Virus record (IMG/VR): IMGVR_UViG_3300027734_000050
Span: 1 to 64,000 of that record
DNA: 64,000 nucleotides
Strand: one strand, 5' to 3'
Source of the DNA: a virus
Lineage: Duplodnaviria > Heunggongvirae > Uroviricota > Caudoviricetes
The notes beneath the pieces are model-generated. The model made no database searches. It saw only the letters and a program-made list of their open reading frames with translations, and was not told where the DNA came from. Shown piece by piece: positions 22,607-64,000 of the stretch; the first letter of the stretch is position 1, and each line of letters starts with the position of its first letter. A program made the position numbers and the translations under genes.

Positions 22607-22621
22607 CATTCTTGCTGGTCA

Positions 22622-22645: not shown

Positions 22646-22657
22646 TAAATATATTAT

Positions 22658-25040: not shown

Positions 25041-25045
25041 TCATA

Positions 25046-25099: not shown

Positions 25100-25106
25100 T
25101 ACACCT

Positions 25107-25352: not shown

Positions 25353-25354
25353 CT

Positions 25355-25384
25355 TGACTTGTACAGCGTTTTGCTGTATACTGT
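25355..25384 (+). promoter_or_regulatory. sigma70 promoter TTGACT-17-TATACT
   Basis: ttgacttgtacagcgttttgctgtatact is followed by the RBS AGGAGAAAAC and the ATG of the RpoZ-like gene. Confidence 0.5.
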
Positions 25385-25411
25385 AACTATCAACAACCCC
25401 TAGGAGAAAAC

Positions 25412-25645: not shown

Positions 25646-25681
25646 AGATCACTGTGCTTGTGAAAAAAGATAAATATCTTC

Positions 25682-35841: not shown

Positions 35842-36094
35842 ATTCTTAGACGCAGTAGAAGTCCCATACCGCACTGTAAGAAAACTGGTATGGAACGGCA
35901 CAGAATTTGTGCCTATACTGGTGTATAGGATACAAGGACATCTCAAGGACGAAGTGCATCAGTGGTTACGAAACACTTACGGACCGCGAGGGCAATATCT
36001 AAATGGTCGTCATTGGGATCATTACGAGGGGAAATTTACTGTGATGGACGAACAGGTGTATATGTTCTACAAATTGAAATGGGAGAGAGGATGA
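35822..36094 (+). CDS. hypothetical protein (90 aa)
   Basis: ORF. Its stop overlaps the next start as ATGA. Confidence 0.4.
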   Translation: MLAPRIEFLDAVEVPYRTVRKLVWNGTEFVPILVYRIQGHLKDEVHQWLRNTYGPRGQYLNGRHWDHYEGKFTVMDEQVYMFYKLKWERG

Positions 36095-37056
36095 AAATAT
36101 TAGTCACAGGCGGGCTTGGCTTAATCGGACACAATGTAGTCAAACGCCTACAAGAACAAGGCCACACCGCATCCATCATCGATAATCGTACCACATACGG
36201 AATAATTCCACAGGCAGAACTTGACTACTTGATGACCGAGAGATTGAAAAAGATTAAGTTATCACCATCGCACTTGTATAATCGAGACATCTGTGATAGA
36301 GAATCCATTGACGACATATTTGAGATTGAGCAGCCCGATGTAGTGATACACATGGCGTCATTTCCACGACAAAAAGTCGTGAATGCCGACCCTGCATGGG
36401 GGTCTCGTGTGATGATGGAAGGGTTGATCAATGTGCTCGAAAGTGCCAAAAAACACAAAGTAAACCGAGTTGTGTATATTTCCAGCTCAATGGTGTATGG
36501 TGACTTCACAGATGATGTCACTGAAGACGCTGTATGTAGGCCGCAAGGCCAATACGGTATTATGAAACTTGCAGGAGAAAACCTTGTTAAAGACTATGCT
36601 CGCCGTGGTTGTTTTGATCACGTTATTATCCGTCCCAGTGCTGTTTATGGGCCGCTCGATGTGGAAGACCGAGTTGTCTCCAAATTCATGCTCACAGCAA
36701 TGCGCGGCGGCGTGCTCCGGGTCAACGGATCTAGTGAAACACTAGACTTCACTTATGTGGATGACGCTGCTGATGGTATCGTGGCTGCTGCTACGAGGTT
36801 TGTGGGTGCTTGCCAAACATTTAACATCACAAAAAGTCACAGCGTGAGTCTGCTACAGGCCGCTGGCATGATCATTGAGATTGTTGGTAAAGGATCAATT
36901 GAACTGCGCGACAAGGATGCAGACTTTCCAAGTCGTGGTGCGTTGAATATAGATCTTGCTAGAGCCGTGTTGAAATATGATCCCAAGGTGGATGTTGCAG
37001 AAGGATTTGAGAATTACTATAACTGGTTCACCAACAGTTCGTATTGGAAAACATGA
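36091..37056 (+). CDS. NAD-dependent sugar epimerase/dehydratase (SDR family)
   Basis: N-terminal VTGGLGLIGHNVV is a GxxGxxG Rossmann motif. YxxxK context present. Start at MKILVTGG, RBS GGGAGAGAGG. Confidence 0.7.
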   Translation: MKILVTGGLGLIGHNVVKRLQEQGHTASIIDNRTTYGIIPQAELDYLMTERLKKIKLSPSHLYNRDICDRESIDDIFEIEQPDVVIHMASFPRQKVVNADPAWGSRVMMEGLINVLESAKKHKVNRVVYISSSMVYGDFTDDVTEDAVCRPQGQYGIMKLAGENLVKDYARRGCFDHVIIRPSAVYGPLDVEDRVVSKFMLTAMRGGVLRVNGSSETLDFTYVDDAADGIVAAATRFVGACQTFNITKSHSVSLLQAAGMIIEIVGKGSIELRDKDADFPSRGALNIDLARAVLKYDPKVDVAEGFENYYNWFTNSSYWKT

Positions 37057-38138
37057 ATATACCATTTACAAATTTACACCAGCAATATCTTGATTGCAAA
37101 ACAGAGGTAGATCAGGCCATAGCAAACACTATCGCTAGTAGCAGTTACATCACAGGACCTGATGTTACTGTGTTTGAAGCAGCCATGGCTGAATATGTTG
37201 GTGCTGAAGATTGTGCCAGCACTGGGTCGGGCACCATGGCCCTGATCTGTGCATTACGAGCCGCTGGTGTCGGCCCTGGACATGAAGTGTTAACTACTCC
37301 ACACACTTTTGTAGCCACTACAGAAGCCATTGTCATGGTAGGTGCCCGACCTGTGTTTGTGGACATTGATCCTGCCACACACCTAATGGATTTACACTTG
37401 ATGCTGGCAAGGATCACCTCTAGAACACGAGCAGTGCTTTGGGTAGATATGTATGGACAATGTCCAGATTTGGATCGCATGAAAAAGATCTGTAAATTAA
37501 ACGATCTTGTGATGATTGAGGATGCTGCTCACAGTCTAGGAACACAATGGAAAGGTCAACAAATTGGCAGCATAGCCGATCTCACTTGCTTTAGTTTCAA
37601 TCCGGTGAAGAATCTTGGCGCCATGGGCGATGCTGGTTGTGTGACTGGCAGTCAAGAACTCATGGATCGTGTGCGTATGTATCGAGATCACGGCCGCACA
37701 GGACGCTATGACATAGTAGAACTGGGATACAATGCTAGAATTGACAACATGCAGAGCAACATTGTGCTGGCCAAGTTACCCAAACTGGTGCATTGGATCA
37801 ATCGCAAACGTGCAATCTGCTCTTGGTATGATGAACAGTTGAGTGATATTGTCAAAACCATACATCGAGATCCGCGTGTAGGGCAAGGTCATTATGTGTA
37901 TGTGATACAGACACCACAGCGAGATGCATTGAAACAGTTTTTAGCAGATCGTGGTATCCAGACCAATGTGCATTATGCTACTACCACACATCAACAACCG
38001 GCATATCAAGCATGGTATTCTCCATGTCCTGTAGCAGAGATCACAGTGAAAGAGATTTTAAGCCTGCCTTGTTGGTATAGCATGACTCAAGATCAACTGG
38101 ATCATGTTGTGACCAGCGTCAAGGAGTTTTTTGTATGA
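37044..38138 (+). CDS. DegT/DnrJ/EryC1/StrS-family PLP-dependent sugar aminotransferase
   Basis: The family signature SFNPVKNLGAMGDAG carries the PLP lysine. GYNARID is present. Confidence 0.75.
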   Translation: MENMNIPFTNLHQQYLDCKTEVDQAIANTIASSSYITGPDVTVFEAAMAEYVGAEDCASTGSGTMALICALRAAGVGPGHEVLTTPHTFVATTEAIVMVGARPVFVDIDPATHLMDLHLMLARITSRTRAVLWVDMYGQCPDLDRMKKICKLNDLVMIEDAAHSLGTQWKGQQIGSIADLTCFSFNPVKNLGAMGDAGCVTGSQELMDRVRMYRDHGRTGRYDIVELGYNARIDNMQSNIVLAKLPKLVHWINRKRAICSWYDEQLSDIVKTIHRDPRVGQGHYVYVIQTPQRDALKQFLADRGIQTNVHYATTTHQQPAYQAWYSPCPVAEITVKEILSLPCWYSMTQDQLDHVVTSVKEFFV

Positions 38139-39007
38139 ATATGTGGTTGGTTGGTGCAGGATATTGGGGATCTAAGTTGTTGGAGACCTTGAAGAAGTTT
38201 GATGTGACTGCACAGGTCATCGACATACGCAATGGGCAGACCATTGATGATATCATTTCAAAGGATCCAGTTATGTTGGCCACACCACTGTGGCAGCATC
38301 ACGAGCAGACTGTAAAATTACTACAGCGTGGGCACGATGTGTATGTAGAAAAGCCCATGGCCGAAACCGTGGAAGAAATCGCCGATATACAGAAATATTT
38401 ACAATCTGGACAGTTGCTCATGGTGGGTCATTTGTTTGTGCATCATCCACAGATGCATGAGATCCGTTCTATAATCAATCAAGGTGCGATAGGAAAATTA
38501 CAGCATGTAACCAGTCGTAGATTGAATTGGGGGATCTATCAAACCAAAACAGATCCACTGCTGAGCTTGGCTGTGCATGATATCAGCATACTGTTACAGG
38601 TATGTTCAAATCTTAAAATCACCCAATCTCGGGCATGGAACTATGCCCAAGGACCACAATGCGACCGAGTATCATTCAGCGGGCATGCAGATGGTGTGAC
38701 CTTTGATGTTGATGTGAGTTGGCATTGGCCTGTTCGCACTAGGCAAACTGTGTTCATTGGCACACAGGGACAGATTGTTTGGGATCAAGATGTGAATGCC
38801 GTGACTGTGAAGAAGAATCTGATCATCAACAATCGTGCTGTGGCGGATGAGAATCCAATTGAGATATATCTCAACGGTATCACACCATTAGAAGCCGAGC
38901 TAGAGCATTGGATCGATTGTATACATTCTCGGCAAACACCCAGCAGTGATATCAAGCAGGCTGCCCAGGTGGCTAACATAGTTCAGCAAGTAAAAGACTT
39001 ACTGTAA
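38135..39007 (+). CDS. Gfo/Idh/MocA-family NAD(P)-dependent sugar oxidoreductase
   Basis: N-terminal WLVGAGYWGSKL is a GxGxxG motif. EKPMA motif is typical of this family. Confidence 0.65.
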   Translation: MNMWLVGAGYWGSKLLETLKKFDVTAQVIDIRNGQTIDDIISKDPVMLATPLWQHHEQTVKLLQRGHDVYVEKPMAETVEEIADIQKYLQSGQLLMVGHLFVHHPQMHEIRSIINQGAIGKLQHVTSRRLNWGIYQTKTDPLLSLAVHDISILLQVCSNLKITQSRAWNYAQGPQCDRVSFSGHADGVTFDVDVSWHWPVRTRQTVFIGTQGQIVWDQDVNAVTVKKNLIINNRAVADENPIEIYLNGITPLEAELEHWIDCIHSRQTPSSDIKQAAQVANIVQQVKDLL

Positions 39008-40627
39008 GTCTCCGTAGCGTGACACAAAATACTCACGCAACCATTCCCATCTAAATGACTGTTTAAGAGTTGACAATGCTTGATCACTGGCTTTGAAGAA
39101 CTCTACTCCATCACGAGCACCTTTCAAGCACCATTCAGCATGATTGCCTTGGGCACGAGATAGCCAGGTATTCAATCTGTATTCGCCATCTACAGTGGGT
39201 GATTGCGATTCAAAGTAGGCCAACTTAGCACATTCTCTAAATGCTGTACGCCAGGTGTGGTAAGGAGTTTGATTGAAGTCACCATAACAACTGACCATGG
39301 GCACACTTTCATGAGCAAAACTCAAGGTGTAATCCAATCCAAAGTTCTTTGCCTGATTGAGTTCACGAATACCTTGGCAGTTGTACATCACCACACCCAT
39401 GTGTCCGTATTGTAACCCATTCACTGTGTTGATACAATCGAAGATGTAGTTCTTGGGTTGTTGCATGCGATCGGGCACATAGGAAAAATCAAATTGTTCA
39501 TGCAATCGGGTCTTGGCAAATACTGCGTAATACCAAGGAGTTGAACTGAGATCTGCTGCTGCCTCAAGAGCAGTTTCCATACCTGCCACACCATGCACAC
39601 GCTTGGATCTGGCACATCGTTGTGCTAGTATGTTCCAATTTTGTTCTGCATCAGGTTCATCATAGGATATGAATACCACATCCATCAAGGCATCAACACG
39701 ATCATTACAGTGTGTTTTATCTATGTAGGGATAATCGTATAACTGGGTTTTTATGTAAGGAATCGCTGCCTTGGGCACAATAACACCACCAGCACCCGGA
39801 CTTAATGGAACTATGGTCTTGGTTTTCTCTCTCCATAACGAAACAGCCGGAGGTCTTAGGCCTTGACTGACAGTGTGTCCGGTCGAAAAGATAGCCAACG
39901 GCCCTGCAAAGTCTTGAGTCTGCACAGCATTGACATGGCTATCCAAGTTGTGTTTTATTACGGGCATAGGCCTTCGTGGCACTGATAGGTATTGATCAAC
40001 AAAGTTACAATCATACCAGTCCAACAACTCCACAGTTTCTGCCTTTGCAGCAAAACTAGGCACATGCATGAAGAATGTGTCTCCAAACTTTTGTTCATCG
40101 CTGGCAAACACATGCAGCAGATTGTATTGCCAATGACTAGGGTGCCACGAGAAATCAAAATCAGTGTAATCGCAGATACTAGAGCACACCCAAACAAATT
40201 CATGTTCAGTGGCAATGCTCTTGGCCAATCGGATCAATGTATCTCTGTAGTTGTCGAAGTATCTTACACGGCGAGCAACATTGGGTATCTGTCCTGCTGC
40301 ACCATCCATGTGATCGATCTCGTAGATAGCAGTGGCTAGAGTTCTTGGCAATACCGGAGCAGCATGATAGTTTGTGTCTGTGTAGCCCGCAGTAGGAACA
40401 AGATATGTGCCCGAATCCTGTTGATGTTGGCTGGGCCATGCATGTCGTTGATGTGCTTGCCAAGGTGGAGGTTCATAAAGGAAATCAAAGCCTGTGTAAT
40501 CCACTAAGTATGATACCATCCAGAAGAATCGTGTACGCGATTGCTGTTGTGCTTGCTCAATAGATTCAACCTGTTGCTCATGTGGAAACAGGTTAGGTTT
40601 GGTTCCAATATAAAATATATCAAACAT
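38999..40627 (-). CDS. 542-aa protein of the glycosyltransferase-like paralog family (internally duplicated DYTDFDFSWHPSHWQ module)
   Basis: Duplicated DYT(D/G)FDF...W segments. Shares the VVFISYDEPDAEQNW block with 59956-60906. Convergent 9-nt overlap with 38135-39007. Confidence 0.5.
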   Translation of the reverse strand: MFDIFYIGTKPNLFPHEQQVESIEQAQQQSRTRFFWMVSYLVDYTGFDFLYEPPPWQAHQRHAWPSQHQQDSGTYLVPTAGYTDTNYHAAPVLPRTLATAIYEIDHMDGAAGQIPNVARRVRYFDNYRDTLIRLAKSIATEHEFVWVCSSICDYTDFDFSWHPSHWQYNLLHVFASDEQKFGDTFFMHVPSFAAKAETVELLDWYDCNFVDQYLSVPRRPMPVIKHNLDSHVNAVQTQDFAGPLAIFSTGHTVSQGLRPPAVSLWREKTKTIVPLSPGAGGVIVPKAAIPYIKTQLYDYPYIDKTHCNDRVDALMDVVFISYDEPDAEQNWNILAQRCARSKRVHGVAGMETALEAAADLSSTPWYYAVFAKTRLHEQFDFSYVPDRMQQPKNYIFDCINTVNGLQYGHMGVVMYNCQGIRELNQAKNFGLDYTLSFAHESVPMVSCYGDFNQTPYHTWRTAFRECAKLAYFESQSPTVDGEYRLNTWLSRAQGNHAEWCLKGARDGVEFFKASDQALSTLKQSFRWEWLREYFVSRYGDLQ

Positions 40628-41747
40628 GATTAGGATAGATGAGATTTACGAAAATACATTCTTGCCCTGGGTGAGAAAAAACTTACCTACCACCACTCTT
40701 TACTATCATGATCCTTTTGGGCATAGCGATCCTTCCAGTTTACATTGTAGAAGTTTAAATAATTTGCCACTCGACGATACCAGTTTCATATACTTCTTTG
40801 ATCAAGAACCTTTGATCTTAGATCTACATCAAACAACATTCGACCGTGTGGACCAAAACAACATAGCAAAATTTAAACCTTGTAATAGAAAAACAGGAGC
40901 CATAGTAGTTAGCGAAACTGCCAGTGACAACATAGATTATATATGTAAACAACGAAACTTGCAACCTTTTTATTATTTTTTTCATGGGTGGGCAGCACTA
41001 GACTGGTATCGCGGGTATGATCGAACTTTCCTAATCACTCCATGGACCAAAAGAACAATTCGAAAAACATTCTTCAGTGCCAATCGCATCATTGGTGGGC
41101 TACGACAACATCGTGTGTTAATGTTGTATCACTTTGCCCAGTTAGGATTATTGGATAATTGGATCAGCGCCAGTGCTGTGTGTCCAGTAGAGAATATGCC
41201 CATTGGTGAAATCGCTAAACATTATCAGGAACGATATCCCGACATCGTTGATGTAGTCAATAACATAGAGTTACCTAGACTGTTTCCCGATGAAGATACT
41301 CCTAGAATGAGCAGTTGTTGGTTAGATCAATTTGATCCATGTGCCGAAAGTTTAGTGTATCATGTCACAGAAACTGTGTATACTGGACGTAGATTACAAC
41401 TTACCGAAAAATCATTCAAACCTATTGCCTTGGGTATGCCATTTGTACTGTCAGCCACCGCGGGAAGCCTGGCATATCTAAGAAGTTATGGATTCCAAAC
41501 CTTTTCAGAGGTCTGGGACGAGAGTTACGATCTCGAATCTGACGACTTCTTACGAGCCGAGAAAGTTGCTGCCTTACTAAAACAATTAGATGATCTTTCT
41601 GAACAACAGAAACATGAACTGTTCCAAGCCTGTTGGCCTGTGATTGAACATAACTGGAACTGGTTCTATCGCGGTGAGTTTGAATCAGTACTGTGGACCG
41701 AACTCACCAACATGTTAGATTCAATCAAGGCACATTTAACAGTATGA
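40626..41747 (+). CDS. glycosyltransferase-like paralog family member (373 aa)
   Basis: C-terminal block TEKSFKPIALGMPFV...YLRSYGFQTFSEVWDESYD, shared with 41744, 53211 and 55683. The start codon overlaps the divergent minus-strand start by 2 nt. Confidence 0.5.
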   Translation: MIRIDEIYENTFLPWVRKNLPTTTLYYHDPFGHSDPSSLHCRSLNNLPLDDTSFIYFFDQEPLILDLHQTTFDRVDQNNIAKFKPCNRKTGAIVVSETASDNIDYICKQRNLQPFYYFFHGWAALDWYRGYDRTFLITPWTKRTIRKTFFSANRIIGGLRQHRVLMLYHFAQLGLLDNWISASAVCPVENMPIGEIAKHYQERYPDIVDVVNNIELPRLFPDEDTPRMSSCWLDQFDPCAESLVYHVTETVYTGRRLQLTEKSFKPIALGMPFVLSATAGSLAYLRSYGFQTFSEVWDESYDLESDDFLRAEKVAALLKQLDDLSEQQKHELFQACWPVIEHNWNWFYRGEFESVLWTELTNMLDSIKAHLTV

Positions 41748-42931
41748 TTTATATCTCAATAGATCACTTGCATCCTGTTACCCGTAGACCTATGCCTAAT
41801 GGTATACCTGTACATCAGCATGATCAGATTGATCAATTAGGCAACGATAGATTGGATTTTCCTCGCATAATTTACTATCTACGTGATTGTAAAATCTCCT
41901 ATCAAATAGTAAACCCTGCCCACGCACCTGTTGGATCATGGTATCCGATGGTGCTAAGTTGGTTTGATTTCAGCCGAGACTATATGTCATTGATAAGCCC
42001 AGCAGCATTGAGTCGTATCAAAGCAAAAGAAATGCTAGTGGTGTTCACTTACCACGAAGGAGATCATCCTGGACGTATCCGTGATAGATTGGACACACTT
42101 TGTTCCGATCACGGGATAGATCCTGCTATGACATGGTTGATATCAGGCAATACAACTGCCGATCAATATCCAAACTCCGTGTATTGGCCTGAATTGGAAT
42201 TCATGTATTGGCGGACCGTGGATAGAAACTCAGGTGCTCAGTATCACCTCAATCCTAGGTCACAAGCATATACTGGATTATGCCGTATAGATAAACTATG
42301 GCGCAAGGTATTCATGAGTGATCTGTGGAGTCATGGATTGCACAAACAAGGTTACTTCAGTTACACTCAACATCTACTAGGAGGCGAGGACAACTACTAC
42401 GAATGTGCATTAAGAAATAGTTATCTTGCTGAATGTCAACTCAGGGTAGATCAGTTCATTGCTGCCGGACCATTTCTTGTGGATGATCTAGATACTCGGG
42501 CTCACAATACCTATGATCAGAACATGACTGACTTGTACACAGACAGTTACTTCAACATTGTGTTAGAGACCATGATCGATATTGATGATTCTGGTGGACA
42601 GTTTATCACAGAAAAAACTTTTAAACCCATATTCAACAATCAATTCTTTGTGGCTGTGAGTTCCGCAGATCATCTCCGACATCTACGTGATCTAGGATAT
42701 CAGACCTTTGGAAGATGCATAGATGAGAGTTACGATTCAAACACCAACAATCAAGATCGATTCGAATCTGTGTTGGATCTTACCAAGTCATTGATACAAT
42801 CAGGGCAGGATAATTTGCATCGTCTGTACGAGGATCTTGCACCTGAGATACAACACAATGCTCGAGTGTTCCAGTCAGGAATGGCTCACCGATTGAAAGT
42901 GGTCGTGGATCGCATCAACTGCAAACTTTGA
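41744..42931 (+). CDS. glycosyltransferase-like paralog family member (~395 aa)
   Basis: C-terminal block TEKTFKPIFNNQFFV...LRDLGYQTFGRCIDESYD. Start at MIYISIDH. Confidence 0.5.
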   Translation: MIYISIDHLHPVTRRPMPNGIPVHQHDQIDQLGNDRLDFPRIIYYLRDCKISYQIVNPAHAPVGSWYPMVLSWFDFSRDYMSLISPAALSRIKAKEMLVVFTYHEGDHPGRIRDRLDTLCSDHGIDPAMTWLISGNTTADQYPNSVYWPELEFMYWRTVDRNSGAQYHLNPRSQAYTGLCRIDKLWRKVFMSDLWSHGLHKQGYFSYTQHLLGGEDNYYECALRNSYLAECQLRVDQFIAAGPFLVDDLDTRAHNTYDQNMTDLYTDSYFNIVLETMIDIDDSGGQFITEKTFKPIFNNQFFVAVSSADHLRHLRDLGYQTFGRCIDESYDSNTNNQDRFESVLDLTKSLIQSGQDNLHRLYEDLAPEIQHNARVFQSGMAHRLKVVVDRINCKL

Positions 42932-44390: not shown

Positions 44391-44484
44391 TTGTAGATAA
44401 AGGGATCGCGTTTGCGAAGTTCTCGCAGTTTTTTACGATAGCGTATCTCTAGTGTGATCTTTGCCCATAGTCTTTTAATCCAAT

Positions 44485-51876: not shown

Positions 51877-51882
51877 AGTCGA

Positions 51883-56672: not shown

Positions 56673-56703
56673 AGTAGGAAGTATTTAACAGTTAAATAGA
56701 TGC

Positions 56704-57294: not shown

Positions 57295-57979
57295 TCCGTT
57301 GATGCAATAATTTTGCATAGTATCTGTGGCCGTCGGCAGTTGGATGTTTTCCATCTTCGGCAATCCAATTATTTCTTTGTGCAATGTCCTCAAGGCAATC
57401 TTCCTGATACACGTTATTCCAGTCTATTAGATTGTACAGGTGTTCAAACCTTGAGAACTTTCTAATAGGTCTCCAATGCATGAACAAGTATGGTATGTTG
57501 TTTTCTTTAAGTACCGATTGCAAACTGATCATTCGAATGTATTCAGATTTGAGTATTTCTTTGTACCCAGTAACCGCATGGCATGATTGAAATACCTCAC
57601 TCACACTATCTTTGGTTCCTCTTAGATATCCTAAGCTGAATATCCAATTTTTTTCTACATGATCTTGATCATCAATGGGATATACTATTTTACTGGGCCA
57701 GTCATTCTGTGCGCTCTGATAGATTGAAGTATTAAGACTGTCAGAAAATTTAGAGATGTCATCCACACGGAAATCCATTCGACCACATTCTGCCCACATC
57801 ACCAATACCAGATCATATTTCCTTTGTGAGATTTCGCCTATGGTGGTTTCGTGTATGTAGGTATTGCCACATCCTGCCATGGCTAGATTTACTAGTTCGC
57901 ATCCCAGTAGTTCTTTAAGAAAATAAGGCCAAGAATCTGGACCTCTACTGACACTAGCACCATTGACAAGTATATTCAT
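57227..57979 (-). CDS. SGNH/GDSL-like hydrolase (250 aa)
   Basis: N-terminal ILVNGASVSRG is a block I motif with a Ser. The 3' end overlaps 56704-57294 convergently. Confidence 0.4.
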   Translation of the reverse strand: MNILVNGASVSRGPDSWPYFLKELLGCELVNLAMAGCGNTYIHETTIGEISQRKYDLVLVMWAECGRMDFRVDDISKFSDSLNTSIYQSAQNDWPSKIVYPIDDQDHVEKNWIFSLGYLRGTKDSVSEVFQSCHAVTGYKEILKSEYIRMISLQSVLKENNIPYLFMHWRPIRKFSRFEHLYNLIDWNNVYQEDCLEDIAQRNNWIAEDGKHPTADGHRYYAKLLHQRITSEILKNPGGKGNPDGSIFLE

Positions 57980-59058
57980 TGATATTGTTTCTCAAGTTGA
58001 GCACGTGATACTTTGCCGCTTGTGCCGGTCGAGATAGTGTCTAGTTGTTTTATCATGGTCGGGCGGCAATGCTGATTAATATCTGTCAGAACTTTTTGTA
58101 CCTGAGCCGGCGTGCAATTTCCAGTGTACAAACATTTTACACTATCACTGCCAAATATAACACAGGTTTCGATCAATGGCAACAAACGCATCAACTGATT
58201 TTCTATACTTAGTGGATTGAGTTTGTACCCGTTGACATTGATTTGATCACGATGGCGACCTATGATGCGATAATACCCATCTGAATCCTGCTGTGCTAGA
58301 TCGCCGGTATCATACCAATCTTTAGTAAAGAGACATTCTCCTTTGATCCAAAGATGTTGATCTCTTATTTCTGCTTGTATTCCCGAAGGCAATCCAACAG
58401 TTCCTATTCGTTGTTCGCCATTTAATGGATTTGTAAAACAATGGCTCAAAGATTCAGTCATGCCAAATGCTTCAATCACAGGCACATTGAATTTGGCACA
58501 GAGATGTTGATACAAGGTGTCAGGCAATGCTGCACTAGCACTACGAATAAATCTCAATGTTGTTAAATCTAGATTACCGACGATCTTGAGAATACCCGGG
58601 ATCGCTGTTATAAAAGTGGGAGAGAGTTTTGGAAGATTACGTATTTCATTCAATGACAAGAACTTCATTTCACATCCTGATGATTTTGCAGCCCAATAAA
58701 ATCCTTGCCCATGTGCATGGCTCAGGCTCATCACACTAACATACCGATCGTTGGCAGTGATGTTGTATGCATTACATATAGTTTTTGCAAGAATATCAAT
58801 TTGATCTTGTGTAAAACTACAAAATTTACTGTCACCGGTAGTACCGGATGTATACCATAGCAATTTCTCTCCAGGATAGTCTCTTCCGGATCTACTAGAT
58901 TCTCCTTGATTAGTAATTAACAAACTCCAATCGGCTTGATCTAATAGATATGATTGTCGTTGAACTGTTGCTTTAGGATCTATTATCATAAGACTATAGT
59001 CCGTCAACTCGTCGATATAATCTTGCGGATTATCTACACAAAGTACAGCCCGTTTCAT
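57976..59058 (-). CDS. AMP-dependent synthetase/ligase (stand-alone adenylation enzyme, 360 aa)
   Basis: YTSGTTGDSK is the AMP-binding core motif. WYDTGDLA...GRHRDQINVNGYK is an A8-like motif. Confidence 0.7.
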   Translation of the reverse strand: MKRAVLCVDNPQDYIDELTDYSLMIIDPKATVQRQSYLLDQADWSLLITNQGESSRSGRDYPGEKLLWYTSGTTGDSKFCSFTQDQIDILAKTICNAYNITANDRYVSVMSLSHAHGQGFYWAAKSSGCEMKFLSLNEIRNLPKLSPTFITAIPGILKIVGNLDLTTLRFIRSASAALPDTLYQHLCAKFNVPVIEAFGMTESLSHCFTNPLNGEQRIGTVGLPSGIQAEIRDQHLWIKGECLFTKDWYDTGDLAQQDSDGYYRIIGRHRDQINVNGYKLNPLSIENQLMRLLPLIETCVIFGSDSVKCLYTGNCTPAQVQKVLTDINQHCRPTMIKQLDTISTGTSGKVSRAQLEKQYQ

Positions 59059-59936
59059 TTGTTGTTTATTTTATCTTTGTATTTTGTTTGCAAGAGTCTG
59101 ATCTGCCTGACGGATTTTATATAAAAATCTTCGACGGTGATTCCATCAAACTGTGGAGGCCGCATGGCAGACAAATTAAAAATTTCTCTCTCTCCTATAT
59201 TTTGTGTAGCTGTGTTTAAAATCGTTGCTATCTCTTTTTGTTTGCGGACCGGCATGGATTTCAATGCAATAGTGATATTAAAAATATATGGAGCATCTAT
59301 TCCTAGCTCTTTTAGTGTTTTTATTTTAGGTTCCTGAGGCAAGCGACCGGGGCAACTGGCAGCGATCATTTGCATCTTAGGGTTCTTTGTTTTTAACGAG
59401 GTATAACTTTCATACTTGTCAATAACAAATTCAATTCCATTGTCCCCGGCCATGTTGATTAACGCATCGTTGTTGCTTTTAAACACAATGTATAGAACAT
59501 CAAATTTATACTTCTCACCAAGAGCAAGTGCAGTCAAATGCGAAGCATTTCCAGCCCCAACTCCGCCTACTACAAATTCTGACTGCCCGGATAAAGTTTT
59601 ATTTGTTATCACTGCCCAACATGCATCACCAAATGCATAAATCGGCACATAATCAGTCTCAATGAGTTTTCCTGATTCAATATTTTCTACATATGTTGGG
59701 GCGATAATTGCCAAGCTGTTTTCATCCAAGTTCTTGACAGCAATAATTTGATTACCACCAGGTTTGAATTCTACCACAAATTTATAGGTAGATTGTATGA
59801 AATTTGCTTCGTCGACTACACGGAACAACGCCGGGGTGGCACTGTGTGCCGGGCTGTATGGGCTATAGATCTTGATTGTTTCACCGGCAAATGTGCTGCT
59901 GTACAAAACTAGTAATACTAATTTTAACCATTTCAT
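59055..59936 (-). CDS. secreted TctC/Bug-family-like substrate-binding protein
   Basis: Signal peptide MKWLKLVLLVLYSSTFA. GGVGAGNASHL resembles the tripartite tricarboxylate receptor fold. Confidence 0.4.
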   Translation of the reverse strand: MKWLKLVLLVLYSSTFAGETIKIYSPYSPAHSATPALFRVVDEANFIQSTYKFVVEFKPGGNQIIAVKNLDENSLAIIAPTYVENIESGKLIETDYVPIYAFGDACWAVITNKTLSGQSEFVVGGVGAGNASHLTALALGEKYKFDVLYIVFKSNNDALINMAGDNGIEFVIDKYESYTSLKTKNPKMQMIAASCPGRLPQEPKIKTLKELGIDAPYIFNITIALKSMPVRKQKEIATILNTATQNIGEREIFNLSAMRPPQFDGITVEDFYIKSVRQIRLLQTKYKDKINNK

Positions 59937-59955
59937 ATTTTTAAAATTAAAATTA

Positions 59956-60906
59956 TTAAATGGTATCTATCTCTCGAACCATGGCACCACGGTTGCGCCA
60001 ATTGCTACGATAATGGCGTTTGAAAAACTCACTGGCTTCCACTGTGAGCATATGCATGGGTAGATCTAATTGTGTATGCAATTCCGTAGCGATGTTGTTG
60101 CTCACATGCTCGGGCTGTTCCTTTTCTACAGTTCGCCATATCTCAGACAATGCATCAAAGTTTTGTACCTGCAAATAGTCCCAGTTGGTGAGCATGGTCA
60201 TATATGTACCTTGTCGGGCTCCGGCCATGGCCCAGTATCCATAGTCTACATCTGCACCCACATTGTGCCAGATGGTAAGATGGTCAAGATTGCGTTGATG
60301 CACACGTTGTTGAAATTCAGGCAATGTGGGCCGTCGGCCACGATCCAAACACATCTTTACACCTTCGCGGAAGCCAGCACGCCAAGCATGGAATGCTGAC
60401 CCATTGGGATATGTGGTTGAATAACAGTCATGCATGGCCCAATACAATGGATCGAAACAAAACTCCACTTGGGTTTCTGTACGGCCGTCTGTAGCTTCAT
60501 GAGTACGCATGGCATTCACAAACGTGCGTGTCCAACTACTGATGCCACCATTACCATACATAAGACCATTCACATGGTTACGAGCACGCCATCGGAACAC
60601 CGCTTGCTCATGTTGTTCAGTGGGGAATAGCAGTGTCTGGTTGAAAAACTCCGGATCAGGAAGGTTGTCACCATCAATCAATACAAAACGCTCAGTGGTG
60701 CTGGCTTCTGCTGCTGCTTTGTGTGCTGCGTCTGATCCTTTGACTCCGTCTATTCTAGTGGCCCACGGAACCATGTTCCGTATCTTGACCCAGTGTTCTT
60801 CTTTCTGGGGCTCATCATAACTGAGATAGATGCAGTCTAGATCAGCGACATCAATTTGTTTCGACGACATTTTCTTTTTTCTTCCAATATTGTCCTGGTT
60901 GATCAT
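59956..60906 (-). CDS. hypothetical protein (316 aa) sharing an N-terminal block with the 542-aa paralog
   Basis: CIYLSYDEPQKEEHW here matches VVFISYDEPDAEQNW in 38999-40627. Confidence 0.45.
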   Translation of the reverse strand: MINQDNIGRKKKMSSKQIDVADLDCIYLSYDEPQKEEHWVKIRNMVPWATRIDGVKGSDAAHKAAAEASTTERFVLIDGDNLPDPEFFNQTLLFPTEQHEQAVFRWRARNHVNGLMYGNGGISSWTRTFVNAMRTHEATDGRTETQVEFCFDPLYWAMHDCYSTTYPNGSAFHAWRAGFREGVKMCLDRGRRPTLPEFQQRVHQRNLDHLTIWHNVGADVDYGYWAMAGARQGTYMTMLTNWDYLQVQNFDALSEIWRTVEKEQPEHVSNNIATELHTQLDLPMHMLTVEASEFFKRHYRSNWRNRGAMVREIDTI

Positions 60907-61195
60907 TTACCACAACAGTCACATCATTGATATGGCAAAGTGTTCCTGAATCTGCAGGTACGAGTTTGGTCATCCTGGCAGTTCTACGTCTAACAATTTT
61001 TCCATCAACAACGTTCACTGCCCGGTCCTGCAATGCAAATTGCTCGGGTGTGACATCAACATACTTACCGGGCAACTCTTCATGACTGTAAAATAATGGT
61101 AGTCCTGCATCATCATAGTAGAGCCTATAGTATACCGGCTTGGCATCAGTCCATTTGTAGTTGTGCCAAAACTCTAAAAATTCTTGTTCAGACAT
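60851..61195 (-). CDS. hypothetical protein (114 aa)
   Basis: ORF overlapping its neighbours. Confidence 0.4.
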   Translation of the reverse strand: MSEQEFLEFWHNYKWTDAKPVYYRLYYDDAGLPLFYSHEELPGKYVDVTPEQFALQDRAVNVVDGKIVRRRTARMTKLVPADSGTLCHINDVTVVVNDQPGQYWKKKENVVETN

Positions 61196-61964
61196 GTCGC
61201 CAATCTTTCACATGATAATGAACTGCACCCCACTGTGCCACAGTATTGATCCTTAACGGATTGAGTTCCCATGTGAGTTCTTTAGTCCAATCAGATGTGT
61301 GTATAGGAATCATATGTCGTTTCATATGCACGATTTGTGGATATATTGCAAATGGCATAGTAACCAATTCAGGTCCAATGATCTGTGCTGCCATGGCATA
61401 CACTAAATCCGTAGATGGTACTTCGTCTGGAAACTTTAGCAAGGTCTTGTAATCACTCCAGTGTTCGAATATCCTGCGTACTAGACCAAAGAACTCCTGT
61501 GCAGTCGGGCTCAATCTCCAGTAAGTGATGGCATTGTATACATCGGGCAGGTTGTTTGTGTCAAATACTTTTCTGTAGAATCTACTAGTGGCTGGTTGAT
61601 CGTAGAAGTCTCTGGCACCAGTGGATATCACAACATCTCTATGCTCAAACATGGTCCACCAGTGATCTATCTCGCTGGCAATGACCATGTCTGCTTCCAA
61701 TTTGATAGTCTGCCTAAATGGGCTTGCACCAAACACTTGCCAGTCGTTGGCATAGAGATTATCACTGAGTGGTAACTCGAATGTTTTGTAGTAGTCTATC
61801 AGGGCAGACCAATTGGCATTAGGTTGGTCGGTCAACAAACAGACTTTGGCATCAGGATGAAACTGCTTGATTGTTTTGATCAAGTTATATGCACAGTCTA
61901 CATAGTTGACCGTGGGAGTGTTTATGGCTGTGATCAAATAGCCGCGTTCACTTTGCACTGGCAA
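61188..61964 (-). CDS. hypothetical protein (258 aa)
   Basis: ORF translationally coupled to its neighbours. Confidence 0.45.
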   Translation of the reverse strand: MPVQSERGYLITAINTPTVNYVDCAYNLIKTIKQFHPDAKVCLLTDQPNANWSALIDYYKTFELPLSDNLYANDWQVFGASPFRQTIKLEADMVIASEIDHWWTMFEHRDVVISTGARDFYDQPATSRFYRKVFDTNNLPDVYNAITYWRLSPTAQEFFGLVRRIFEHWSDYKTLLKFPDEVPSTDLVYAMAAQIIGPELVTMPFAIYPQIVHMKRHMIPIHTSDWTKELTWELNPLRINTVAQWGAVHYHVKDWRHV

Positions 61965-62748
61965 TGATATCTCCTAGATGTTTTTTGCCCATGGCATGAA
62001 AATTCATGCCCCATGCCATTCTTTTCAGTCGGCCTTGATCTTGATACTTGACTTCAAAGCGATCGTCGTCGATCTGTGTAATTTCATGTTCGGGTAATAC
62101 ACTGGCCAGCATCCAAGGTATGTTGTCTACTTTTAATGTGTGTCCGCTTACTATACCCAGGGCGATGCTGAGTGCGTAGTCATTGCGATATTGACTGCCG
62201 GTGATATGGTATAGATCTTTGTAGTGCTTCCAGTTGTTTTTTACCATGGTCATTGAATCAAAGATATATTGTGCTGTGTTACTACGACGGAACATCATCA
62301 CTGTGGCCCACCACATGGGCATCTTATGCTGCCCAAAATAATTAAGTCCTGAAAAATCCGTGATACCTGTTATGTCCCAAGCCGTTTGATGGCACATAAA
62401 TTCCTGTGGCGCGGCAAGAACCATTTTTAATTCGCTGCCGCAAACAACATAGTCAGCATCCAATAGCAGAGTCTGATCCCAAGGAGTTAAACTGTATGCG
62501 TCAGTTCGAGTGGCATTATACCAGGTTACAGTTTCTTTGTAATCATCAAAGTATCGGGTTCCTCCACTCGTAGGATCGGCTTGAATAACACGATCAAACT
62601 TGTCGAGCCGTGACTGATCAGTGCAATCTGTGATCACTGCTACTGGGATGTCAAGATGACGACGGATACGATCAGCACTCCATGCGGCCATAGCAATGTA
62701 ATCAGTGTGTTCATTGTTGAACGCAAATATCAATGCACCAGTGGTCAT
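61948..62748 (-). CDS. hypothetical protein (266 aa)
   Basis: ORF translationally coupled to its neighbours. Confidence 0.45.
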   Translation of the reverse strand: MTTGALIFAFNNEHTDYIAMAAWSADRIRRHLDIPVAVITDCTDQSRLDKFDRVIQADPTSGGTRYFDDYKETVTWYNATRTDAYSLTPWDQTLLLDADYVVCGSELKMVLAAPQEFMCHQTAWDITGITDFSGLNYFGQHKMPMWWATVMMFRRSNTAQYIFDSMTMVKNNWKHYKDLYHITGSQYRNDYALSIALGIVSGHTLKVDNIPWMLASVLPEHEITQIDDDRFEVKYQDQGRLKRMAWGMNFHAMGKKHLGDIIASAK

Positions 62749-63149
62749 CGTTGTTTGTTCAGTTGTTCGTGCTCTACATACCAGGCATTCATCTGTTCTT
62801 GCCAGTGCATCATGGCCATGCCGCGTAGTTGTTCGGGATTGACCTGCACTGGGATTTCATACAAATCCAAGATCACTGCATCGCATGGCGGCACTGTGGC
62901 CAACAATACCAAGAGTTCCGGGCCAGCACGCCACATACCTCCGGCGTGGGCAAATAGCATCTTGGCCTCGTATTTTTCTTTGAGTACACGGCGTGCAGCC
63001 ACATGGTCAAACCGTGCTCGTGCATGAGCGATCAAATTGTCAGTATTCATTTGAGTATTATAAATGAAAAAAGGGCAAAAGTCTACCTTTTGCCCTTGTG
63101 GAGTTTTGCCTATTAAGCCACCGAAGCAGCGATTGAGGGCGTGCCCCAA
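62745..63149 (-). CDS. hypothetical protein (134 aa)
   Basis: ORF downstream of the structural gene. Confidence 0.4.
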   Translation of the reverse strand: MGHALNRCFGGLIGKTPQGQKVDFCPFFIYNTQMNTDNLIAHARARFDHVAARRVLKEKYEAKMLFAHAGGMWRAGPELLVLLATVPPCDAVILDLYEIPVQVNPEQLRGMAMMHWQEQMNAWYVEHEQLNKQR

Positions 63150-64000
63150 CTATCGCTTAATCCTTGTGCCGTGGATGGTGGAAGATAGGTGACCAATGTG
63201 GTCGGTGCAGTAGCACCACCAATTGAGGTAGCAGGGCTTGATACTGCTGTTCCGCCCGAAATGTCGGCTGTGGTACCTGCACCTGAACTACCATCGCTGA
63301 CCCAGGTTGTGACCAATGTCAGCACTGTGGCCGAAGAGGCCGCAGTTGTACGGATATATTCTCCAGAATATGGAGCAGTAGCGTTGTTTAGTTGGAATAA
63401 AGTTGCAGGGGTTCCTGTTAATTGATACCACCCAGTAGTTGTGGCCAATGTGGTCTGTGTTCCACCGCCACCACCAATACGAGTGGTTCCGGTATAACTG
63501 ACGCCGGCAATGGTCTGTGCCGCGCTGTTGACTCGACCACTTATGTAAATCGATCCACATTGGCCTGCAAGAGTATTCCAATCTGGATCGGTGTCGGTTC
63601 CTGTGCTAGATTTACCATATTGCAATCTCACTAGGCCTCCGGCATTCCAAAAGTATCTGGCTTGATCGGCACTAGGGAAGGTCACAGTATGAGTGAATGT
63701 GATAGTCCATGCTGATTGCCCCGATCCGGTAGCAGTTGTTTTGCTTGTGGTACCTGAGAATGTGCCGTATTGTGTACCTGAACTTGTTGCATTACCACGA
63801 TTGACGGTGACACTGGTAATGTCGGTAGCCACATTGGCTAAGATAGCAACAACATTACCAGTGACTGGGGCGGTTCTTGCGGTTATAGTCGTGGTAGTTT
63901 GAGCTCCTGCTGTGGCAAGATTATTAACCAAGGTAGCCCAACTAGTGGCGGTCACTATTCCACCGGTGCTCACTGCACTGATTGCTGTTTGTCCCCACCC
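63113..64000 (-). CDS. Ser/Thr/Gly-rich virion structural (fiber/decoration-like) protein, N-terminus probably beyond window edge
   Basis: Composition is more than 45% T, S, G and A, with repetitive TTT/GGT runs. The ORF is open to the window end. Confidence 0.5.
   Translation of the reverse strand, partial: GWGQTAISAVSTGGIVTATSWATLVNNLATAGAQTTTTITARTAPVTGNVVAILANVATDITSVTVNRGNATSSGTQYGTFSGTTSKTTATGSGQSAWTITFTHTVTFPSADQARYFWNAGGLVRLQYGKSSTGTDTDPDWNTLAGQCGSIYISGRVNSAAQTIAGVSYTGTTRIGGGGGTQTTLATTTGWYQLTGTPATLFQLNNATAPYSGEYIRTTAASSATVLTLVTTWVSDGSSGAGTTADISGGTAVSSPATSIGGATAPTTLVTYLPPSTAQGLSDSWGTPSIAASVA

Follow-up and report, generated by a model that had tools for sequence, protein, structure and literature searches.

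A conserved radical SAM and glycosyltransferase locus adjoining the fibre genes of uncultured giant phages

What might a giant phage make with a locus crowded with radical SAM enzymes, glycosyltransferase-like proteins and sugar-nucleotide enzymes, and to what would the product be attached? This question is raised by a 64,000-nucleotide stretch of viral DNA (hereafter the window), whose portion from 36 to 64 kb is an enzyme-dense locus; the source is a freshwater-lake jumbo myovirus, uncultured and ~345 kb in size. The ORFs of the window were annotated by Pfam and NCBIfam profile searches, and conservation counts refer to 80 related viral contigs that were examined. The ORFs are found where an earlier sequence-only reading had placed them, and the enzyme-dense locus is real. 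It is also phage-borne, as indicated by 37 tRNAs, a tmRNA, ThyX and homing endonucleases in the window, by relatives on contigs of 337-348 kb, and by synteny with the baseplate/fibre region of the Ralstonia jumbo phage RsoM2USA, a distant, cultured relation. The locus is kept by a widespread group of uncultured giant phages of lakes and the ocean. The system had been proposed to be undescribed, and our literature search found no published description of it.

Gene order in the locus runs from the fibre through the T/S-rich protein, a small protein, two GT8 proteins, a second small protein and the 316-aa protein to the radical SAM enzymes, and is retained in related viral contigs spanning 85% to ~40% identity. 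A search for the same gene order elsewhere recovered this arrangement in 80 of the 80 related viral contigs, and thus it is not due to chance. The enzyme genes directly follow the fibre genes on the same strand. As the sequence-only reading had noted, the locus ends at a structural gene rich in Thr, Ser and Gly, which lies on the minus strand (positions 63113 to 64000; Thr 21.7%, Ser 10.8%, Gly 12.6%, Ala 12.9%) and is cut by the window edge. On the source contig this fibre-associated protein, our proposed acceptor, has a full length of 327 aa. Ahead of it lie a paralog of 334 aa, a fibre of 411 aa that weakly matches Peptidase_G2, and a protein of 4790 aa. T/S-rich proteins occur in 48/80 loci, a count limited by flank length, and RsoM2USA ORF355 joins a stretch resembling the N-terminus of the fibre to the domain of this T/S-rich protein. 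Next on the minus strand is a small conserved protein of ~101-134 aa (62745 to 63149; 44/80 loci) that is homologous to RsoM2USA ORF354.

This position appears to favour a fibre protein as the acceptor over DNA or the cell surface. The explanation we prefer, to which we assign a probability somewhat short of even, is that the locus is a glycan synthesis and tailoring module that would glycosylate a fibre protein in the cytoplasm and tailor the glycan by radical chemistry. Gene content, folds, paralogy, conservation, gene order and the variable cassettes are seen directly, while we infer the acceptor, the identity of the sugar and every radical SAM reaction. Such a glycan would serve to shield the surface by which the virion recognises its host, or to vary it, and a sugar coat placed on a fibre protein by a locus of this kind would be undescribed. 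Directly adjacent fibre and enzyme genes in a conserved order count in favour of fibre glycosylation. However, the adjacency could merely reflect late co-expression, and many tail fibres that carry no glycan are likewise rich in T, S, G and A, which also counts against this reading. A further point against it is a terminator-like hairpin with an 11-bp stem and a T run, which separates the enzyme genes from the fibre gene; a promoter-like site comes after it (63057 to 63097, minus strand; both are pattern matches only).

That the locus encodes many glycosyltransferase-fold proteins along with amino-sugar-nucleotide enzymes is supported by several families. Five glycosyltransferase-like paralogs had been counted from the letters, but the family has four members, located at 40626 to 41747 and 41744 to 42931 on the plus strand (the latter within an ORF from 41693; 395 aa in the source contig gene call) and at 53211 to 54323 and 55683 to 56672 on the minus strand. 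BLASTP and hhalign (probability 99.3-100) agree on this paralogy; a 358-aa ORF is unrelated to these proteins. The GT-B fold of the family is predicted from a structure model of the member at 53211 to 54323, which resembles Mimivirus L138.

Two other glycosyltransferase-like families had been missed. The first is a GT8-like (GT-A) pair on the minus strand, found in 62/80 loci, whose family profile matches glycogenin (E 1.2e-5); one member carries a DAD motif (61948 to 62748; similar to RsoM2USA ORF353) and the other EAD instead of DxD (61188 to 61964; similar to ORF352). A conserved 114-aa protein without family matches (60851 to 61195, minus strand; 35/80 loci) separates this pair from the second family. 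Its 316-aa core member (59956 to 60906, minus strand) has a VDGDN motif and lies immediately upstream of the radical SAM block, and its 542-aa relative (38999 to 40627, minus strand; similar to RsoM2USA ORF348) matches it over the C-terminal half (BLASTP; hhalign probability 99.8) without a DxD, carrying AVFAKT at the alignment site where relatives have VDGDN. A glycan would be begun in the host cytoplasm, on Ser/Thr residues of the T/S-rich protein encoded just upstream, by the GT8-like pair together with the 316-aa protein, and the GT-B paralogs would lengthen it. The weak resemblance of the 316-aa family to GT-A enzymes counts against this proposal.

Profile searches of the locus ORFs found no flippase (Wzx), polymerase (Wzy) or initiating phosphoglycosyltransferase, and the proteins of the locus contain no transmembrane segments. 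This absence of membrane-bound export machinery, a direct observation, is what a soluble pathway in the cytoplasm would lead one to expect. Recent capture of an O-antigen cluster was considered and is ruled out, since the core is kept across the phage lineage to ~40% identity and lacks these three functions.

The same transferases might instead serve to remodel the LPS core, lipid A or capsule of the infected host, for instance to prevent superinfection or the sticking of progeny to debris, with peripheral-membrane GT8 and GT-B enzymes and a carbamoyltransferase acting on lipid-linked host glycans. GT8 is the family to which LPS-core Glc/Gal transferases belong, core-type transferases need no transmembrane helices, and the Pseudomonas LPS core contains a carbamoylated heptose. 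Moreover, the Vibrio phage K566, which is unrelated, has four N-twitch radical SAM genes that are interleaved with two GT8 genes of Pfam significance and one weak match to GT4. Its cluster adjoins an LpxC-like gene (Pfam E 1.3e-40) and a gene annotated as PagP; in that phage this suggests host LPS as the target, and it counts against fibre glycosylation. We nevertheless consider surface remodelling unlikely in the present lineage. The core module is fixed beside fibre genes rather than lysis or early genes; lipid-carrier, flippase, ligase and export genes were not found in the locus; and a TctC-like protein with a signal-peptide-like N-terminus, which would suit a surface role, is a rare accessory (2/80 loci). 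Surface conversion is also typical of temperate phages. RsoM2USA, by contrast, is reported as lytic (PMC8504454).

The most conspicuous genes are those for radical SAM enzymes, six of which do lie on the minus strand as the sequence-only reading had stated. Five exceed the cut-off (170 bits) of the NCBIfam model NF033640 for N-terminal-twitch radical SAM proteins: rS45 (45554 to 46843; 284.8 bits; CxxxCxxC and GGEP motifs; orthologue in 69/80 loci), rS46 (46830 to 48041; 331.5 bits; Pfam SPASM at residues 9-78; 77/80), rS49 (49291 to 50550; 386.8 bits; 80/80; >7,000 database homologues), rS51 (51883 to 53214; 290.8 bits; 33% identical to rS54; 73/80) and rS54 (54313 to 55686; 318 bits; 71/80). 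The last is the orthologue of the single RsoM2USA copy and is 36% identical to RsoM2USA ORF349. The sixth enzyme (48038 to 49294) is a divergent accessory copy that scores 102.5 bits, has a GC content of ~0.38 and belongs to a type present in 7/80 loci; the segment from 48041 to 49289 has no counterpart in two relatives (L008 and L010). Their tandem arrangement holds for four contiguous genes (overlaps of 14, 4 and 4 nt), which are followed by two unannotated ORFs and then by alternating radical SAM and GT-B genes, two of each, that overlap by 4-11 nt. None of the core enzymes is a copy of housekeeping QueE or NrdG (285-387 bits on NF033640 versus 16-27 on QueE/NrdG models), and the suggestion that these enzymes carry out C-methylation gains no support because a B12-binding domain is absent from all six. 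The statement that such a set is unusual also needs qualifying: five to six copies are the norm in a very abundant phage lineage, comprising in the window five conserved orthologues and one accessory.

Across the 80 contigs, the core enzymes are separate orthologues in a fixed order, and CxxxCxxC is intact in 415 of 419 radical SAM copies, which indicates selection on five different steps and favours the fibre glycosylation reading. Each of the five could perform a different radical step on sugars, such as oxidation, dehydration, epimerisation or C-C/C-O bond formation, with BtrN, DesII and AprD4 as analogues. Yet functionally known SPASM/twitch enzymes mostly modify peptides or proteins, and the nearest solved structures (8vpo, CteB, anSME) match through the core domain only, both of which count against the fibre glycosylation reading, as does the scarcity of glycosyltransferases (~7/82) among the heterogeneous neighbours of bacterial homologues.

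The five enzymes might instead modify protein directly, in the manner of RiPP maturases, introducing cross-links, epimerised residues or oxidised Ser/Thr into the T/S-rich fibre or another structural protein while the glycosyltransferases act separately. Their best PDB matches include CteB, anSME, YydG and SkfB, they are encoded beside a Ser-, Thr- and Trp-rich protein, and a minimal locus retains five radical SAM genes without GT-B or carbamoyltransferase genes. We regard this alternative as decidedly unlikely, given that no leader-peptide-type precursor, RRE/PqqD domain, maturation protease or exporter was found in the locus, that T/S-rich proteins are nearly free of Cys (0.3%), making thioether chemistry improbable, and that the GT8 pair and the 316-aa protein persist even in minimal loci. 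The interleaving of radical SAM and glycosyltransferase genes in two unrelated phage lineages, here and in K566, likewise speaks against it and for fibre glycosylation.

The presence of sugar-nucleotide enzymes also favours fibre glycosylation. Pfam domains bear out the claimed SDR epimerase/dehydratase, DegT aminotransferase, Gfo/Idh oxidoreductase and carbamoyltransferase. The SDR protein (Epimerase, E 3.8e-44; plus strand) probably starts at 36091 and ends at 37056 within an ORF from 35962 (321 aa in the source contig gene call); it is homologous to RsoM2USA ORF358 and closest to dTDP-glucose 4,6-dehydratase (TIGR01181, 114.6 bits, below cut-off). ThyX is encoded ~0.6 kb upstream of it. Two plus-strand genes follow: a PLP-dependent sugar aminotransferase (37053 to 38138, ORF from 37044; DegT_DnrJ_EryC1, E 1.4e-102), whose top NCBIfam match is PseC (237.7 bits, below the cut-off of 423.5), and an oxidoreductase (38135 to 39007; GFO_IDH_MocA and its C-terminal domain) closest to UDP-GlcNAc 3-dehydrogenase (NF040723, 81 bits, below cut-off). 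These soluble phage enzymes are candidates for producing one or more amino-deoxy sugar nucleotides. A NodU/CmcH-family carbamoyltransferase (42915 to 44390, minus strand; Carbam_trans_N E 2.9e-36, Carbam_trans_C E 6.2e-50; 54/80 loci) would add a carbamoyl group.

An aminoglycoside pathway would employ a comparable set, namely DegT, Gfo/Idh, a TobZ-type carbamoyltransferase, glycosyltransferases and a weakly BtrN-like twitch domain (E 0.04), and the product might accordingly be a free aminoglycoside- or nucleoside-like carbamoylated pseudo-oligosaccharide that is employed in the course of infection and not linked to the virion. This seems quite improbable: exporter, resistance and cyclitol synthase genes were not found in the locus, the SDR, DegT and Gfo genes occur in only 2-12/80 loci within the flanks examined, and the reading leaves unexplained why the locus is always linked to fibre genes. 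We judge it highly improbable that the sugars are placed on phage DNA bases as a hypermodification against restriction. The nearby ThyX gene would suit that role, as would the occurrence of radical SAM enzymes in some thymidine hypermodification pathways (PMC8989533), but the window yielded no hydroxymethylase, 5-hmdU kinase, TET-like oxygenase or other base-activating enzyme, the module lies in the structural rather than the replication region, and the GT-B match is generic.

Other viruses also bear on fibre glycosylation. The one-radical-SAM version of the locus in RsoM2USA, which counts in its favour, lies beside the baseplate-wedge ORF362 and adjoins ORF361, 359 and 356, virion proteins confirmed by MS (PMC8504454). 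There are precedents as well. In Mimivirus, the virus itself encodes the cluster that glycosylates its fibrils, with a 4,6-dehydratase, a PLP aminotransferase and several glycosyltransferases including L138 (PMC10117803), to which the modelled GT-B paralog bears a likeness. The virion of XacN1, which is related to RsoM2USA, contains at least two glycoproteins (PMC5852040); the module is absent from XacN1, which counts against the reading.

The slots that accessory genes fill are variable, and the window contains three such cassettes, each a low-GC stretch. Besides the sixth radical SAM gene, these include two unannotated ORFs (~234-248 aa and 210 aa; 50543 to 51876, minus strand; GC 0.356), which have no family matches and are absent from L008 and L010 and from all 80 viral loci, and a four-gene cassette on mixed strands (56704 to 59936; GC 0.39) without a DNA counterpart in L008 and L010. 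Pfam matches confirm two genes of the latter, for a short DegT-like fragment of 196 aa (56704-57294, plus strand; 3/80 loci) and a short AMP-binding enzyme (57976-59058, minus strand; 3/80). One of two claimed SGNH hydrolases (57227-57979, minus strand; 15/80) has a DUF6071/SGNH-like match below the Pfam cut-off (E 1.8e-5), and the second gained no support; the TctC-like assignment (59055-59936, minus strand) is weak at 21.9 bits against a cut-off of 27, and the hydrophobic N-terminus of this protein resembles a signal peptide. All of these are rare accessories rather than core components. Under the fibre glycosylation reading, strain-specific cassettes that supply an extra radical SAM enzyme, an SGNH-like esterase/acyltransferase, an adenylating enzyme or extra GT-B copies would diversify the product.

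The 358-aa protein (44485 to 45561, minus strand; 57/80 loci), which always follows the last core radical SAM gene, has no Pfam, PHROG, NCBIfam or PDB match. Between its gene and that of the carbamoyltransferase lies a basic 33-aa ORF (44387 to 44488, minus strand), called on source contigs, whose peptide exhibits only conservative changes in relatives at ~75% DNA identity.

The region from 35,962 to the window end encodes 28 tightly packed open reading frames (ORFs), as determined by ORF listing and translation, and these are arranged as two transcription units that converge near 42.9 kb. Searches with Pfam and NCBIfam profiles bore out most of the enzymes named in a sequence-only reading of this DNA. 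These include an SDR epimerase/dehydratase (top model dTDP-glucose 4,6-dehydratase, at a score under the cut-off of that model), a DegT aminotransferase (top model PseC), a Gfo/Idh/MocA oxidoreductase (top model UDP-GlcNAc 3-dehydrogenase), a NodU/CmcH carbamoyltransferase that carries both domains, a short AMP-binding enzyme, a 196-aa DegT fragment and a series of radical SAM enzymes. Matches to DUF6071 and TctC are weak, and the second of two proposed SGNH hydrolases found no support. At the window end lies the gene for a fibre-associated, T/S-rich protein (63113-64000, minus strand) in which Ser and Thr account for 32% of the residues. Virus-encoded sugar-nucleotide enzymes and glycosyltransferases are clustered with structural genes, as is expected of virion glycosylation, and we read the locus as a probable glycosylation machinery of viral origin whose conserved radical SAM component is without precedent.

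Five of the six radical SAM enzymes belong to NCBIfam NF033640 (‘twitch domain-containing radical SAM protein’, N_Twi_rSAM), a family defined by sequence alone, for which the curated whole-protein cut-off is 170 bits. The scores are 284.8 bits for 45554-46843, 331.5 for 46830-48041, 386.8 for 49291-50550, 290.8 for 51883-53214 and 318.0 for 54313-55686; the sixth enzyme (48038-49294) fails the cut-off at 102.5 bits. All six genes lie on the minus strand, as had been claimed for a tandem series of six paralogs, but only four are contiguous. The remaining two are located beyond two unannotated ORFs and alternate with glycosyltransferase-like genes. In an alignment of 10 radical SAM sequences, the CxxxCxxC and GGEP motifs are represented by invariant residues C139, C143, C146, G201, G202 and P204, and the N-terminal region has three more invariant cysteines (C32, C92 and C95) and a near-invariant one (C51). 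The CxxxCxxC motif is kept in 415 of 419 copies from 80 viral loci. A Cys-rich, twitch/SPASM-like domain precedes the core, and Pfam detects SPASM in three paralogs (residues 9-78, 85-137 and 32-96). Among solved structures, the nearest (8vpo, CteB, anSME, viperin, MoaA and BlsE) align with these proteins through the core domain only, and a PDB profile search gave a marginal likeness between the N-terminal region and the twitch domain of BtrN (E 0.04). Models for QueE, NrdG and MoaA score far below NF033640, which rules out ordinary housekeeping copies of QueE or NrdG, an explanation that had been raised for these genes. In bacteria, an NF033640 gene usually occurs singly, whereas the present locus has five orthologues in an unvarying arrangement, and our searches of the literature and PDB found no member of the family with a defined substrate, reaction or structure.

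Enzymes of this kind might alternatively modify a protein directly, which we regard as distinctly unlikely. The SPASM-like domain speaks for this proposal; against it, the locus lacks the hallmarks of RiPP maturases, in that no PqqD/RRE, peptidase or ABC match was obtained with Pfam or NCBIfam. The sole conserved small ORF encodes 33 amino acids and is unlike a RiPP precursor, as it is basic and has neither Cys nor a Ser- or Thr-rich core. This ORF (44387-44488, minus strand; MNWIKRLWAKITLEIRYRKKLRELRKRDPFIYK) overlaps both the stop of the gene for a 358-aa protein and the start of the carbamoyltransferase gene, and shows only conservative changes in relatives with approximately 75% DNA identity.

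Glycosyltransferase-like paralogs had been counted as five, but all-versus-all BLASTP and profile-profile comparisons recover four full-length members (40626-41747, 41693-42931, 53211-54323 and 55683-56672). The candidate for a fifth, the 358-aa ORF (44485-45561), was rejected because profile-profile comparison shows it to be unrelated. The predicted model of one of them (53211-54323) displays the two Rossmann-like domains of a GT-B fold, which the other three presumably share. Their family has no match in Pfam (even at E<=5), PHROG or NCBIfam, and it is large, with 12,380 representatives at E<=0.001. Two more paralog pairs were recognized. The first comprises 266- and 258-aa GT8-like proteins (61948-62748 and 61188-61964) that as single sequences have no Pfam GT8 match; a 12-sequence profile of the pair matches glycogenin-1 (E 1.2e-5) over the first ~100 positions only, and this match runs through the DxD motif, which reads DAD in 61948-62748 and EAD in 61188-61964. 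The second pairs a 316-aa protein (59956-60906) with the C-terminal half of a 542-aa protein (38999-40627, minus strand). A VDGDN motif is conserved in the 316-aa family, which has a weak GT2 match and may have a GT-A fold, its predicted model being too poor for a firm assignment; the C-terminal domain of the 542-aa protein, which is without the DxD of its paralog, may be a non-catalytic derivative. Residues 1-99 and 36-134 of the 542-aa protein each match two places in the homologue of a relative, suggesting an internal repeat of roughly 100 amino acids, and a ‘DF.F.W.P..W’-like motif can be discerned three times by eye. The 316-aa, 358-aa, 248-aa and 210-aa proteins have no match in Pfam (E<=5), PHROGs or NCBIfam, and PDB profile searches with the 316-aa, 358-aa and T/S-rich families returned nothing.

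A scan of IMG/VR with a five-sequence radical SAM alignment as the query revealed at least 596 relatives of the locus, and the counts that follow refer to the best 80 of these, whose identity to the query enzymes descends from 85% to 40%. Most of the 80 carry five (37 loci) or six (26) radical SAM copies, and the others have four (8), seven (5), three (3) or two (1). The five core enzymes (54313-55686, 51883-53214, 49291-50550, 46830-48041 and 45554-46843) are separate orthologues in the constant order rS54-rS51-rS49-rS46-rS45. Each was recovered from 69-80 of the 80 loci, and the 48038 type from only seven. The search of metagenomes for the same gene order, which had been recommended, showed that it does recur across related viral loci. 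It begins with the fibre gene, the T/S-rich gene, a small protein gene, two GT8-like genes, another small protein gene and the 316-aa gene, which is followed by a variable slot. It continues with rS54, an optional GT-B gene, rS51, rS49, a slot, rS46, a slot and rS45, and then with the 358-aa gene, a further slot and the carbamoyltransferase gene; on the opposite strand are two GT-B genes and the 542-aa, DegT and SDR genes. Minimal versions do without the GT-B and carbamoyltransferase genes.

Three stretches of the window are missing from relatives with approximately 75-80% DNA identity and coincide exactly with regions of low GC content (0.36-0.39, versus ~0.45 elsewhere). These carry the sixth radical SAM gene (48041-49289), the two unannotated ORFs (50553-51894) and the short DegT, SGNH-like, AMP-binding and TctC-like genes (~56.7-59.9 kb). 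They look like recently gained cassettes in fixed slots, and the locus is accordingly a long-established phage module whose cassettes can be exchanged. A recently captured bacterial O-antigen cluster is ruled out by the conservation of the core throughout the lineage and by the lack of membrane machinery. Specifically, Pfam searches of the locus detected none of the hallmarks of Wzx/Wzy or ABC systems for O-antigen or capsule (initiating phosphoglycosyltransferase, flippase, ABC exporter, polymerase/ligase), and none of the 28 ORFs has a convincing transmembrane segment. These absences fit a pathway of soluble enzymes in the cytoplasm.

Lakes and oceans harbour this lineage in great abundance, with thousands of database homologues for each of three query proteins. 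Among GTDB genomes, the closest radical SAM matches are on phage-like contigs binned in metagenome-assembled genomes (MAGs). Copies that are truly bacterial are usually solitary and lie in mixed neighbourhoods (Marinifilaceae, Bdellovibrionota, Flavobacteriales, Paenibacillus and Nitratireductor), where glycosyltransferases are moderately frequent neighbours (~7/82) and a heterogeneous Pfam census fixes no function. The full phage module is found on MAG contigs (our loci L013, L014, L015, L017 and L091) assigned to Haliscomenobacter sp. EUL_031, a Legionellales MAG, Verrucomicrobia TMED56 and Rickettsiales MED657. These contigs are probably mis-binned phage DNA, and the Haliscomenobacter contig (80% identity) could be a hint of a Bacteroidota host.

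The window derives from a freshwater-lake metagenome, in which exact-protein matches assign it to an 80.7-kb contig, and close relatives are on contigs of 337-348 kb. Past the window end, the same strand completes the T/S-rich gene (327 aa in full) and goes on to encode a 334-aa paralog, a fibre protein of 411 aa that weakly matches Peptidase_G2, and a protein of 4790 aa. Pattern matches indicate a terminator-like hairpin (63071-63097) and, after it, a promoter-like site that separate the fibre gene from the enzyme genes, which suggests that the two sets of genes differ in expression level and does not necessarily imply separate regulation. The only cultured phage that shares the module is the Ralstonia jumbo myovirus RsoM2USA (343.8 kb), whose ORFs 361 to 348 match locus genes in order, making the locus syntenic with the baseplate/fibre region of that phage. 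The matches are the giant protein beyond the window end (ORF361), the SDR (ORF358), the T/S-rich protein (ORF355), a small protein (ORF354), two GT8-like proteins (ORF353 and ORF352), the 316-aa protein (ORF350), the radical SAM enzyme at 54313-55686 (ORF349, 36% identity) and the C-terminal domain of the 542-aa protein (ORF348). The annotation of RsoM2USA makes ORF362 a baseplate wedge protein, and mass spectrometry has confirmed ORFs 361, 359 and 356 as components of the virion (PMC8504454). ORF355 fuses a stretch resembling a fibre N-terminus to the T/S-rich domain, thereby tying the T/S-rich protein to the fibre apparatus. The single indirect hint of a glycan on a virion protein is that virion glycoproteins have been reported for XacN1 (PMC5852040), a relative of RsoM2USA that is without the present module.

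An independent occurrence is provided by the cultured Vibrio phage K566 (OZ196521, ~255 kb), which belongs to a separate, perhaps KVP40-like, lineage. Its genes 0303-0309 (12600-26259 in our locus L001) include four N-twitch radical SAM paralogs in alternation with two GT8 genes, both significant in Pfam, and a gene with a weak GT4 match. Because K566 is unrelated to the phage of the window and yet interleaves the same two kinds of enzyme, the association of radical SAM enzymes with glycosyltransferases recurs independently. Its cluster adjoins genes for an LpxC-like protein and for a protein annotated as PagP, a context that speaks for enzymes that remodel the host surface. We consider this unlikely for the window locus, which adjoins a fibre gene; the K566 cluster, by comparison, lacks such a gene as well as the 316-aa family, the 358-aa protein and the carbamoyltransferase. 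The K566 record also contains genes for PnuC and nicotinamide phosphoribosyltransferase.

The best-supported model, which we favour tentatively and with a little less than even confidence, is soluble, cytoplasmic, direct glycosylation of the T/S-rich fibre-associated protein. It builds on the gene content, folds, order and conservation of the locus, from which we infer the acceptor, the sugars and the radical SAM reactions. The GT8-like and 316-aa enzymes would start the glycan, the GT-B paralogs would extend it and the five radical SAM enzymes would tailor it through radical chemistry, with a carbamoyl group presumably added by the carbamoyltransferase and the product perhaps varied between strains by the cassettes. 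A more far-reaching version, possible though doubtful, is that the five N-twitch enzymes and alternating glycosyltransferases constitute a novel radical-carbohydrate assembly line, yielding a cross-linked or rearranged fibre glycan with O-antigen-like cassette diversification. Such a line would be an as yet undescribed class of post-translational modification and would assign, for the first time, a function to a radical SAM family that has thousands of members. Sugar modification of phage DNA is the least probable alternative: a search of the 64-kb window for a base-activating enzyme found only ThyX and no dC/dU hydroxymethylase, TET-like oxygenase or 5-hmdU kinase.

Radical SAM enzymes of sugar pathways that carry an auxiliary-cluster twitch domain (BtrN and, by function, DesII and AprD4) oxidise, dehydrate or deaminate amino-sugar and cyclitol intermediates. 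BtrN-type sugar pathways keep similar gene company (DegT, a Gfo/Idh-type dehydrogenase and a carbamoyltransferase), although the twitch domain is C-terminal in BtrN and N-terminal in the enzymes described here. We know of no pathway with five twitch/SPASM sugar radical SAM enzymes. That the locus makes a free small molecule is very unlikely in our estimation; the shared gene company speaks for it and the adjoining fibre genes against it.

Virion glycosylation by virus-encoded systems is established for giant viruses and, recently, for mycobacteriophages, in neither case with radical SAM chemistry. The Mimivirus fibril cluster R132-L143 comprises a 4,6-dehydratase (R141), a PLP aminotransferase (L136), the glycosyltransferases L137, L138, R139 and L140, and L142 and L143 (PMC10117803). 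Both loci encode a self-sufficient viral pathway with a 4,6-dehydratase-like SDR, a DegT/PseC-type aminotransferase and several glycosyltransferases, for which virion surface fibres are the proposed target, and the predicted GT-B model resembles part of L138 (Foldseek E 2.3e-5). However, Mimivirus is a eukaryotic giant virus rather than a tailed phage, its cluster has neither the radical SAM enzymes nor the carbamoyltransferase, its glycosyltransferases belong to a different family (type 2 in CAZy), and its glycans have been determined chemically whereas the window locus is known from genes alone. Mycobacteriophage glycosyltransferases place O-glycans on capsid and tail tube (Freeman et al. 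2023, as cited in PMC12619734). As summarized there, phage enzymes encoded near structural genes act on virion structural proteins in the bacterial cytoplasm, as we propose here; unlike the window locus, the systems so summarized involve one to few glycosyltransferases, with no sugar-nucleotide pathway, radical SAM enzyme or carbamoyltransferase, and they glycosylate the C-termini of capsid and tail-tube proteins, not a T/S-rich fibre protein dedicated to this purpose. The same article describes ‘moraphages’, jumbo phages from aquatic habitats that reach 307 kb; its text makes no mention of radical SAM, and we found no link between moraphages and the present lineage. Literature searches for N-twitch radical SAM function or phage radical SAM/glycosyltransferase clusters retrieved no published description, in agreement with the earlier view that this is not a described system. 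None of 50,697 phage records was matched by the locus in a megablast search, and tblastn with an 801-aa ORF and one GT-B paralog likewise gave no match.

A fixed set of five enzymes from the uncharacterised family NF033640 is thus locked to glycosyltransferase and fibre genes. If the favoured model is true, this arrangement would give the first functional handle on NF033640 and reveal a form of glycan tailoring not seen before. It would also show that tailed phages exchange glycan cassettes and in this way vary the surface that binds receptors, with consequences for host range, evasion of immunity or defence, and phage engineering. These proposals are directly testable in two cultured phages, RsoM2USA, which has a one-enzyme version, and K566.

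Other features of the window include ThyX and homing endonucleases, one of which (22658-23650) is upstream of the locus, as are a MoxR-type ATPase (29440-30525) and a nearby vWA/DUF2201-type protein (32144-33454). Two solute-binding-type proteins are encoded, the weakly matching TctC-like protein (59055-59936, minus strand), which has a hydrophobic, signal-peptide-like N-terminus, and an SBP_bac_8 protein (23979-25040, plus strand; E 2e-45); such proteins are unusual cargo for a lytic-type jumbo phage. A dense island (3924-21718) holds 37 tRNA genes and a tmRNA (tag ANDEQFALAA), together with three radical SAM enzymes of other types: 8957-9733 (258 aa), 14017-15549 (B12-binding) and 19403-20446 (classic SPASM). 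These may be tRNA- or cofactor-related, and with the six of the locus they bring the 64-kb window to nine radical SAM genes.
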